From Escherichia phage JLBYU40, in the sequence record NC_105514.1: 64,000 nucleotides of DNA; one strand, given 5' to 3'. The notes beneath the pieces are model-generated. The model saw only the letters and a program-made list of their open reading frames with translations. It did not search any database and was not told the DNA's origin. Below, piece by piece: positions 38,877 to 41,440 of this stretch. A program made the translations under genes and the position numbers. The stretch's first letter is position 1. The number at the start of each line of letters is the position of its first letter.

Positions 38877-39824
38877 TTATTTATTACGCATATCCATAAT
38901 CATTTGGCCATCATAGCCAGTGCCAACCACAGTCTGCGGTACACCACCTTGGTATTTCTGAGCACGAATCATTTCAACTTCCAGTTGCTTCCAGCGAATC
39001 ATCTCAGGAGTAATGGTACGTTGCAATGCGGCGTTAGCTTCAGCTTCTTTCTTAGCTGCATATAGTTTAGCATCTGCGTCACGTTCATTGGCAATAGCTT
39101 GGTTGTTGCGAGCTTCACGGTCTGCTTCTGCTTGTTTAACTTTTTGCTGTGCTTCCTGTTCAACGCGAGCCAGTTCAGCTTTCGCAGCATTAACTTGCTC
39201 TTCACGAACTTTGGTATTCTGTACCTGTTCCATGATTACCGGTGGCAAAGTAATATCCTGAAGGAATACCTGCTTAACTGTATAACCATATGGGCGTGCA
39301 TACTCTTCAACTTCCTGTTGAATTGCAGTTTGCAATTGAGCCTGAATTTTAGCATCAAACAAATCTTGTGCTTTAGGTACAGACTTACCAAACTCACGAA
39401 TAGTAGACAGTAATTTTTCAGTTACATACTTGTCTAGTGCCTGATCCTGAGTACCTGCGTTAATACGGTTAATTGGTGCCTTAGAACCATCAAACTGCAA
39501 CATAACAGTCAGGTCAACAGTGGATTTAAACTTATCCTGGCTAGGAACCTGAAGTTTATCTAATTTTACAGCAATATCTTTTGTACTAAAAGTGTCGAAA
39601 GATGCAAATGGGTTTACAAGATGGAAACCTGGTAATACTGGGTTAGGATCTACTTTACCCAGAAATGTTTGGGTTTTAACCGTACCATCAGAAACAATAG
39701 TATATGAATTAAAAGCTAGGATTAAACCTGCTAAACCAACTACAGCACCAATACCCCAACGTTTAATAGTACGAATTACTTTCTGCTCAGAAGTCAGTTC
39801 TTTCATATTTTTAGTATTAAACAT
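38877..39824 (-). CDS. SPFH/band-7 (prohibitin/HflC-like) membrane protein
   Basis: 315 aa; N-terminal TM helix, SPFH-like core, long charged coiled-coil C-terminus. Confidence 0.6.
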   Translation of the reverse strand: MFNTKNMKELTSEQKVIRTIKRWGIGAVVGLAGLILAFNSYTIVSDGTVKTQTFLGKVDPNPVLPGFHLVNPFASFDTFSTKDIAVKLDKLQVPSQDKFKSTVDLTVMLQFDGSKAPINRINAGTQDQALDKYVTEKLLSTIREFGKSVPKAQDLFDAKIQAQLQTAIQQEVEEYARPYGYTVKQVFLQDITLPPVIMEQVQNTKVREEQVNAAKAELARVEQEAQQKVKQAEADREARNNQAIANERDADAKLYAAKKEAEANAALQRTITPEMIRWKQLEVEMIRAQKYQGGVPQTVVGTGYDGQMIMDMRNK

Positions 39825-39858: not shown

Positions 39859-39933
39859 TGGCCGAGGTGACAGGATTCGAACCTGCATAAAGGAATTTAG
39901 AAGACTCCTGCCTCTCCCTTAGACTACACCCCG
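39859..39933 (-). tRNA. tRNA-Arg (TCT)
   Basis: acceptor CGGGGTG/CACCTCG, anticodon stem GGAGT/ATTCC, loop CTTCTAA, CCA. Confidence 0.5.
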
Positions 39934-40435
39934 TTTAAGTATTTTTAAGAACTCTCGTAAAAACTCTTAAAAATACAGACGATACCGGGAGAGTCATAGG
40001 TCTCACTCATTAAGTATTTCAAGACAAAATACAGTAACGTCTATTATTTTCCAGTTTAAGTCAGGGTGACTTAGTGGTTATGTCCTGCGGTATATTGAGG
40101 ACTCGGTTAGGCTTGGGGTCATGACTTCCCGCCTTTTGCTGCTACTCAACAGGAGTTATCGCGAATTACCTGTGCTATTGTGCACCATTAGTGACATCTC
40201 TCATGCCAGCATTTCCCACTTTGTGGATAGCTTGAAAAACTACTCCGATATGGAGAAAGAACTTCACTATCCTAGAATACCTTCTAAAGTTCTTCTTTAG
40301 CCTGGACATAGTTAAATCGTAATAAAACTATTCAGCAGACCGGTTGGTTAGTCTGGAACCAACTACCGCGTGGTTTAGGCAGTGCGCAACTAACCTCGGA
40401 AGCTTTTACGTTAAAAGCATCAGTTATCCAGTTCT

Positions 40436-40507
40436 TACCGACCGTAGGATTCGAACCTACATCTTCCACCAGTTACGGCTTGATAATACCAATTATACTA
40501 GGACGGC
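40436..40507 (-). tRNA. tRNA, anticodon unresolved
   Basis: perfect T-arm, acceptor with one U-U mismatch, no encoded CCA; no convincing anticodon stem by eye. Confidence 0.3.
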
Positions 40508-40730
40508 AGTGTTACTACATAAGTGATTTCCACACCCCACTATTTATAAATTAGAGAAGAGTTTAGGGAAGAGGTTTCAGACGCCTCATTTTACACGTTC
40601 TAGCCACTAACCGGGATTGCCGCCCCCTGTGTACTAGTTTTACAACTAACCCACCGACTCTATTCAATGCACTCCGGTTGGGATTCTGCACTCAGCGTAA
40701 TCGGCTCGCTGTTCCCTAATTTATGAATAT

Positions 40731-40759
40731 ATTATACAGAATTTATAAGCATTTAGCAA
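40731..40759 (-). promoter_or_regulatory. early promoter
   Basis: -35 TTGCTA, 17-bp spacer, -10 TATAAT. Confidence 0.5.
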
Positions 40760-41202: not shown

Positions 41203-41440
41203 TATTTCATCCCCAATGCTTGGTTAAAAGATTGTTCTGTCATAACTGCTGAGACTTTGGCGAAATCAAACTTTTTAGGGTTCGTAGTGATTTCAGCAAC
41301 GTTAGAAGTTTTAACAGTTTTCGTAGTACGAATACCGCGAGTGTTAACACCAATAATTACAACTGATTTCATATTTCGCTTCCTCTCATTAATTTATGAA
41401 AGTATTATACAGAAATTTAAGTATTTAAGCAAGTAAATTT

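Follow-up and report, generated by a model that had tools for sequence, protein, structure and literature searches.

A noncoding gap beside tRNA-Arg in T5-like phages probably encodes RNAX, a single large multi-domain structured RNA

What does a phage encode in some 790 nt that lie between an early promoter and a tRNA gene and hold no credible protein-coding gene? The question is raised by a 64,000-nt stretch of Escherichia phage JLBYU40 (NC_105514.1; hereafter the window, meaning the whole stretch that was analysed), which comes from a T5-like phage, carries 22 tRNA genes on the minus strand and shares 99% identity with Salmonella phage 5 and BF23 in the tRNA region. A gap of 791 nt separates an early-type promoter from tRNA-Arg(UCU) in this window, and an earlier note on the same DNA had described it as two GC-richer noncoding blocks flanking the last tRNA and proposed them as candidate stable small RNAs. 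We conclude that positions 39934-40724 are probably the gene for RNAX, a single large multi-domain structured noncoding RNA of T5-like phages, running for ~790 nt on the minus strand (as do all features of the window given below) from its putative transcription start to the base preceding tRNA-Arg +1. Comparison of related phages showed a predicted architecture composed of a helix P1 with or without a 5′ domain D1, a core of helices P2-P5, a variable middle domain with a palindromic loop, a 3′ three-way junction and a terminal hairpin.

The gene as such is already known, being annotated in GenBank, where the whole gap is entered as one misc_RNA in the records of phage 5 (AJ604531), BF23 (AJ604530), T5 (NC_005859), DT57C (KM979354) and DT571/2 (KM979355) under the label 'rnaX, RNAX, stable RNA with unknown functions' (locus tag T5s08 in T5). 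The annotated rnaX extends from promoter P16-17, a name used for T5, BF23 and phage 5 and annotated in AJ604531 and NC_005859, to the 5′ end of tRNA-Arg, which it abuts exactly. The window matched AJ604531 over 100% of RNAX at 99.1% identity, with the annotated rnaX, tRNA-Arg and promoter lying beneath the match, and the same promoter/rnaX/tRNA-Arg layout was present in T5, DT571/2, DT57C and BF23; by position and nucleotide identity, window positions 39934-40724 are RNAX of the T5 group. Other records label the same DNA 'tRNA-OTHER', 'tRNA-Sec', 'tRNA-Ser' or 'hypothetical protein', or leave it blank. RNAX has stood unexplained for about two decades in the annotation of T5, a classic model phage: the GenBank annotation gives no structure and no family and makes no mention of an embedded tRNA-like element, full-text literature searches found no papers describing RNAX, and neither T5 nor the Demerecviridae is mentioned in a large survey of structured RNAs from phages. 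What appears to be undescribed is the covariation-supported architecture of RNAX, its spread through the Demerecviridae, its embedded tRNA mimic and a setting resembling that of the large phage RNAs GOLLD and ROOL.

A blastn search recovered the RNAX region from 524 phage records at 60-99% identity, and the locus was syntenic in five Demerecviridae genera, namely Tequintavirus, Epseptimavirus, Sugarlandvirus (Klebsiella phages), Hongcheonvirus (Pectobacterium phages DU_PP_V and My1) and Novosibvirus (Proteus phages), in each of which a YqeY-like or SleB gene is followed by the promoter, 0.6-1.35 kb of noncoding DNA, optional open reading frames (ORFs) and tRNA-Arg. Several RNAX motifs were invariant over these genera, whose neighbouring protein is only 35-41% identical. 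The earlier note had tied its proposal to conservation, and RNAX is indeed conserved across all five genera, and the covariation analysis across T5-like genomes that the note had suggested found compensatory changes in many helices. Its statement that the gap lacks a credible ORF was also borne out, as the ORFs within 39934-40724 are only 25-60 aa long and none is kept in relatives; no conserved ORF was found, since all five ORFs of at least 42 aa, counting both strands, gain stops or frameshifts in other genera, some already in T5. The locus therefore does not appear, from its sequence, to hold a protein-coding gene.

For the structural comparison, 41 distinct sequences were reduced to 22 non-redundant representatives, to which a Proteus phage was added for tests of the core domain, and helices were found by RNAalifold and a scan for covarying stacks (alignment coordinates p correspond to window position 40737 - p). 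The core is predicted to be a four-way junction (40370-40540). Helix P3 (40514-40527 with 40419-40432), with 12 bp, was paired in 99.6% of cells, had 7 pairs changed on both sides and was predicted independently by RNAalifold, as was the covarying hairpin P4 (40402-40418). P2 (40537-40540 with 40370-40373) occurs in four compensated variants (GUGG/CCAC, AUGG/CCAU, ACGG/CCGU and AUGGG/CCCAU), and P5 (40378-40398) in five (GGCAG/CUGCC, GACAG/CUGUC, GCUG/CAGC, GCUA/UAGC and UGGC/GCCA). None of 500 column shuffles matched the paired fraction, the number of double-change pairs or the covariation score observed for the core model, and slid controls were only 33-41% paired. In addition, the frequent U-G pairs of P3 would be C-A mismatches on the opposite strand, which identifies the minus strand as the RNA strand. 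Two alternative pairings were discarded: a second copy of AACCAC (p660-663, window 40077-40074) would also allow P2 to form, but the p364-367 partner is preferred because the phage L009 and the Proteus phage compensate there, and a GUGU/ACAC pairing within the core fails because L005 and L015 carry a U-to-C change without compensation.

A covariance model of the core domain, R1, scored 171.7 bits on this window, 110.8 bits on DU_PP_V and 67 bits (E = 4e-13) on the Proteus phage, compared with under 29 bits on genuine tRNAs, recovering the core domain in Pectobacterium and Proteus phages. Outside phages, the core motif GGGGTG-N2-GAA-N14-AACACTGCC gave 6 matches in 185,579 prokaryotic genomes, all at chance level and none with a second RNAX motif, and RNAX had no match in 5,426 E. 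coli genomes. A match in the IMG/VR metagenome collection (L094) was likewise attributed to chance, and Aeromonas phage 4L372XY, retrieved through a shared SleB hydrolase, is not a member of the Demerecviridae and is without RNAX.

The P3 strands sit immediately 5′ and 3′ of the tRNA-like element, so that the two noncoding blocks of the earlier note are physically one fold: they pair with each other across the element, and the long-range helices P1 and P2 join the ~790 nt into a whole. The evidence for structure is covariation and not folding energy, because the whole molecule folds no better than shuffled sequence (minimum free energy z = -0.64), and the many short complementary segments that the note had remarked on are, by energy, indistinguishable from chance. 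The blocks are GC-richer only to a slight degree, with GC fractions of 0.416 and 0.455, the mean for the window being 0.391 (standard deviation 0.034 for 470-bp windows), and the larger block is equalled or exceeded in GC by 21% of 470-bp windows. The observations of the note are thus partly confirmed, and its interpretation as stable small RNAs is partly supported: the gap does hold a structured noncoding RNA, probably transcribed, that was deposited as stable, but as one large RNA and not as two small ones.

Within P3, positions 40436-40507 form an element with an acceptor stem, the GG of a D loop and a canonical T arm, which scored 35.5 bits against the Rfam tRNA model (gathering score 29; homologues 29.7-38.3 bits) and is the only tRNA-like match within RNAX. 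ARAGORN reported nothing here, and the Rfam alignment skipped the anticodon arm, leaving 18 nt unaligned. Instead of the canonical 5-bp stem and 7-nt loop, this arm has a 3-bp stem and a 6-nt loop, GUAACU, and other lineages differ: DU_PP_V has a 3-nt-loop hairpin, Klebsiella phages have a long additional arm, and a loop of 7 nt (UCA) is confined to L005 and L015. Both ends of the element continue into P3, leaving no free acceptor end. No CCA is encoded (AAGA follows the stem; the adjoining tRNA-Arg encodes its CCA), 12 of 20 distinct sequences have G-A at pair 1-72, and mismatches are usual at pair 5-68, all of which makes the element a poor RNase P substrate. Judged by these features, the 'last tRNA' of the earlier note is no decoding tRNA gene and is read instead as an internal, swappable side branch of P3 in the RNAX fold, and annotators should drop the calls of tRNA-Sec, tRNA-OTHER and 'hypothetical protein' inside the RNAX locus.

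The same element gives rise to a rival explanation, in which the region yields at least two separate small stable RNAs (~215 nt from the 5′ part and ~500 nt from the 3′ part), released at the tRNA-like element by RNase P and 3′ processing and each acting alone. The score above the Rfam threshold and the retained acceptor stem and T arm, parts that RNase P recognises, are consistent with such processing, as is the annotation of T5 with several small stable RNAs, among which rnaX carries its T5s08 tag. However, the flanks of the element pair in P3 and the core junction is closed across it by P2, so that even a nicked RNAX would remain one particle, and an unrelated hairpin substitutes for the whole element in L006, L014, L068, L085 and the Proteus phage, both flanks being conserved there. 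We therefore consider separate small RNAs distinctly unlikely and retain a single RNAX molecule as the preferred reading.

Towards the 5′ end, helix P1 (40712-40724 with 40546-40558; p13-25 with p179-191) has 13 bp, was 94% paired with 3 pairs changed on both sides, and closes the optional domain D1 (40559-40711). P1 is kept as a bare hairpin, without D1, in T5, DT57C, DT571/2 and L004; since D1 is missing from T5 and the tRNA-like branch from several phages, neither can be essential to the core function. Within D1, a candidate pseudoknot would join the loop of hairpin P1a (40693-40711), GCCGAUU, to AGUCGGU at 40653-40659; P1a and this pairing, taken together, were 98% paired, and in Pectobacterium and Proteus phages each shows one compensatory change from C-G to A-U. 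The sequence TATAATAKATTCATAAATTAG (window 40725-40736), which runs from the -10 box through the discriminator into the start of the transcribed sequence and is present at most loci, reappears at the early promoter that comes next upstream (P-D/E33 in T5), ~680 nt away on the same strand (near 41398-41410), suggesting that early T5 promoters share an initial transcribed sequence; in RNAX this sequence doubles as the 5′ strand of P1. In some Epseptimavirus genomes, such as L044 (869-1351, minus strand), a 160-aa HNH_3 homing-endonuclease ORF, intact in L044, replaces D1 between the RNAX promoter and the core, and phage rutana (L005, 710-1200) carries a broken copy of this ORF. As the HNH_3 ORF occupies the D1 site, a mobile element has invaded an RNA gene, for which segB, in the T4 tRNA cluster, is a comparable invader.

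On the 3′ side of the core, the variable middle domain (40074-40369) contains several covarying hairpins, including a helix with 5 of 5 pairs changed on both sides (40098-40102 with 40082-40086; p635-639/651-655) and another with 4 such pairs (40214-40219 with 40149-40154; p518-523/583-588), and it carries large lineage-specific insertions in Klebsiella phages. One of its hairpins (40110-40133) presents an 8-nt loop, AGUCAUGA, with the self-complementary sequence GUCAUGAC at 40118-40125. Exactly one copy of GUCAUGAC was found in each of 44 sequences, those of Pectobacterium and Proteus phages included, and the closing stem of its hairpin covaries (GGC/GCC, GGU/ACC, GAC/GUC, GUGAC/GUCAC and UAGAC/GUCUA). 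The loop is a candidate site of loop-loop self-association or of protein binding. In Proteus phage M4H10_20 (L104:13646-14451), the GUCAUGAC hairpin is on the 5′ and not the 3′ side of the core junction, with the RNAX modules seemingly reordered, and a separate T-arm-like hairpin, CUGGGUUCAACUCCCAG, is found elsewhere, which together suggest a permutation of modules.

The remaining 3′ part begins with hairpin H1, AGUCACCCUGACU (40058-40072), and a conserved single strand, AAACUGGAARAUA (40043-40057), both near-invariant in the 22 representatives, with H1 98% paired. T5 (L003, NC_005859) has an insertion of ~87 nt at 1987-2090 that duplicates the H1 hairpin (AGUCACCUUGAC), which explains why its RNAX measures 719 nt despite the missing D1. 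The 3′ three-way junction (39977-40042) comprises an outer stem, GACGUUACUG/CGGUAUCGUC, two hairpins and a conserved junction sequence UUAAU, and three unrelated sequence classes give the same three-way fold, with outer stems GACGUUACUG/CGGUAUCGUC, CAGUAG/CUACUG and GACGGAAGG/CCUACCGUC. RNAX closes with an A/U-rich terminal hairpin of 17 bp (39939-39976), followed by 5 nt, UUAAA, and then by tRNA-Arg +1. Its cells are 97% paired, and no other part of RNAX is as conserved, with 92-100% identity even in DU_PP_V; inspection of its sequence ruled out a promoter inside it. The 5′ strand of this hairpin, UAUYUUU (within 39976-39939), has two complements: AAARAUA, its partner in the hairpin, and AARAUA in the upstream single strand (40057-40043). 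The three strands co-vary, being A/U in Tequintavirus and G/C in Klebsiella phages, and in Epseptimavirus the terminal hairpin has a C-A mismatch while the upstream pairing is perfect. This dual complementarity may represent an alternative pairing or a switch.

How, then, is RNAX expressed? The position described by the earlier note, between tRNA-Arg (39859-39933), the tRNA-like element (40436-40507) and an early promoter (40759-40731), proved correct. P16-17 (40731-40759) is an early sigma-70 promoter of the form TTGCTA-17-TATAAT, matching at 10 of 12 positions in the promoter scan, and its -10 box is directly followed by the discriminator ATATT (40730-40726), the discriminator consensus of T5 early promoters (PMC7472727), placing the putative transcription start near window position 40724. 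Downstream lie tRNA-Arg(UCU), detected by ARAGORN and by Rfam at 49 bits, and an ORF of the SPFH family (38877-39824). No terminator-like site was found on the minus strand between the promoter and 38853-38822, past the SPFH ORF, so that the RNAX gap, tRNA-Arg and the SPFH ORF would form one transcript. Early transcription from P16-17 would yield RNAX as the 5′ portion of this transcript, RNase P would free its 3′ end by cutting at tRNA-Arg +1 where the tRNA abuts, and the long terminal hairpin may shield that end and thereby confer stability.

This arrangement could also be read as that of a cis-acting leader, that is, a giant 5′ untranslated region or precursor scaffold that controls how tRNA-Arg and the SPFH gene are processed, stabilised or expressed and has no action in trans. 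RNAX is always co-oriented with and upstream of both genes, with no terminator-like site between, and its terminal hairpin abuts tRNA-Arg. By contrast, the immediate downstream neighbour differs by lineage while RNAX stays conserved, being tRNA-Arg in Tequintavirus, a 169-aa ORF in several Epseptimavirus phages and a 108-aa ORF in Sugarlandvirus; a multi-domain RNA of 0.6-1.35 kb is far beyond known leaders; and the depositors label RNAX a stable RNA. A purely cis-acting role is hardly likely on this balance.

Membership in a described family, such as GOLLD (Rfam RF01998), ROOL (Rfam RF03087), transfer-messenger RNA (tmRNA), RNase P RNA, the group I/II introns or the bacterial Y RNA YrlA, is suggested by the size, phage origin, tRNA neighbourhood and embedded tRNA-like element of RNAX, which recall GOLLD and ROOL, and by its tRNA mimicry, which recalls YrlA and tmRNA. 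The Rfam check suggested by the earlier note was run permissively, with cmscan against all 4227 families of Rfam 15 and cutoffs of E<=10 for the window and E<=5 for seven diverse homologues, and it returned tRNA matches and otherwise only chance-level ones, with no match to GOLLD, ROOL, tmRNA, RNase P RNA, group I/II introns, Y RNA or 6S RNA in the window or the seven homologues; ARAGORN found no tmRNA either, making a divergent member of these families very unlikely. A nonfunctional spacer of decayed tRNA genes, mobile-element relics or unannotated small protein genes, in line with the mosaic T5 tRNA region, the HNH ORF inserted at the locus in some phages and the automatic 'hypothetical protein' annotations placed on RNAX, is just as remote and effectively refuted by the compensatory changes in many helices, alongside the motifs invariant over five genera, the ORFs all broken in relatives and the single tRNA-like match.

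Several points weigh against RNAX as a single stable, multi-domain RNA. Its thermodynamic stability as a whole is unremarkable (z = -0.64, as above), its description as a stable RNA comes solely from the depositors' annotation, and the candidate pseudoknot has one compensated position alone. H1 and the terminal hairpin are invariant, so that covariation cannot confirm either of them. ORFs separate RNAX from tRNA-Arg in Epseptimavirus and Sugarlandvirus, where RNase P cannot set the RNAX 3′ end. T5 is without D1 and several phages are without the tRNA-like branch, no sequence or structure similarity of RNAX to GOLLD or ROOL was detected, and a dimeric protein might just as well bind the palindromic loop.

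Taking these observations together, we regard it as possible, though doubtful, that RNAX is an architectural or decoy RNA, or a ribonucleoprotein particle, of the GOLLD/ROOL type that both self-associates and mimics tRNA. Self-association would proceed through the invariant GUCAUGAC loop, and in lineages with the tRNA-like branch RNAX would display a mimic of the tRNA elbow and acceptor, which might bind or titrate tRNA-handling factors such as processing and modifying enzymes, ribosomes or host defence nucleases that target tRNA. A bolder version, which seems rather unlikely, makes RNAX the Enterobacterales-phage counterpart of the GOLLD/ROOL nanocages, a self-assembling particle of RNA only or of RNA and the protein T5.081, in which GUCAUGAC would act as a kissing loop and the tRNA-like elbows would decoy or sequester tRNA-directed host factors (for example, anti-phage anticodon nucleases) in early infection; if true, it would supply a genetically tractable E. 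coli/T5 model for this class of giant phage RNA.

T5.081 is encoded just upstream of RNAX and bears a weak resemblance to YqeY (Pfam score 20.9 bits, where the cutoff is 27; PDB 1ng6, E = 0.056). Its homologues upstream of RNAX are 35% identical in the Proteus phage and 41% identical in DU_PP_V, phages without the tRNA-like branch still carry the gene, and Sugarlandvirus has no homologue annotated at the corresponding upstream position. The link that would make T5.081 a tRNA-binding partner of RNAX, akin to YqeY or the GatB tail, is weak and serves as a lead only. The SPFH/band-7 protein encoded downstream shares 75-80% identity with proteins of phage genomes of ~175-180 kb, which may be T4-like to judge by their size, and of IMG/VR phages of ~90 kb, a level that suggests recent horizontal exchange of the gene between unrelated phage groups. 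T5-like RNAX at >=94% identity also occurs in phage database records labelled as Listeria phage (LM 4-14-1, 5264 bp) and Campylobacter phage, which are probably contaminated or mislabelled entries.

Among known systems, the stable RNA species 1 and 2 of T4 (rnaC and rnaD) are ~120-140 nt long, lie in the T4 tRNA cluster and are co-transcribed and co-processed with its tRNAs. Compared by description only, they resemble RNAX as phage stable RNAs beside tRNAs, whereas RNAX is multi-domain and 0.6-1.35 kb long. The bacterial Y RNA YrlA mimics the acceptor, T arm and D loop of tRNA without a decoding anticodon, much as the RNAX branch appears to do, but RNAX has no Rfam Y RNA match and no Ro60/Rsr gene nearby. 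The 3′ end of the long noncoding RNA MALAT1 is reportedly created by an RNase P cut at a downstream tRNA-like element (mascRNA), to which the abutting tRNA-Arg of RNAX is analogous, except that it is a real tRNA and that no U-rich triple-helix element is evident in RNAX.

The closest parallels in setting are GOLLD and ROOL. GOLLD is a noncoding RNA of >800 nt from phages and prophages, found near tRNA islands, with a conserved 3′ part, a variable 5′ part and sometimes tRNAs in its linker, and ROOL is an ornate phage and prophage RNA of ~600 nt, also near tRNA islands, with pseudoknots; both form homo-oligomeric cages, that of GOLLD being a 14-mer (PMC12286853). RNAX is like GOLLD in context, as a phage RNA that adjoins tRNA genes, measures ~790 nt here and carries an internal tRNA-like branch. 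It differs from both in giving no covariance-model match, and from GOLLD in its hosts, which are those of Enterobacterales phages and not the Lactobacillales, mycobacterial and marine sources of GOLLD; since no similarity in sequence or structure was detected, the analogy is contextual. Where GOLLD assembles a 14-mer cage and ROOL also oligomerises, the invariant palindromic loop hints that RNAX may do so. We file RNAX, which fails the GOLLD and ROOL covariance-model tests and is absent from Rfam, as a new family-level member among the large ornate phage RNAs tied to tRNA arrays, joining at 0.6-1.35 kb the small group of very large bacterial and phage noncoding RNAs; because T5 and E. coli are easily manipulated, RNAX makes the function of giant phage RNAs of the kind that GOLLD and ROOL represent directly testable.

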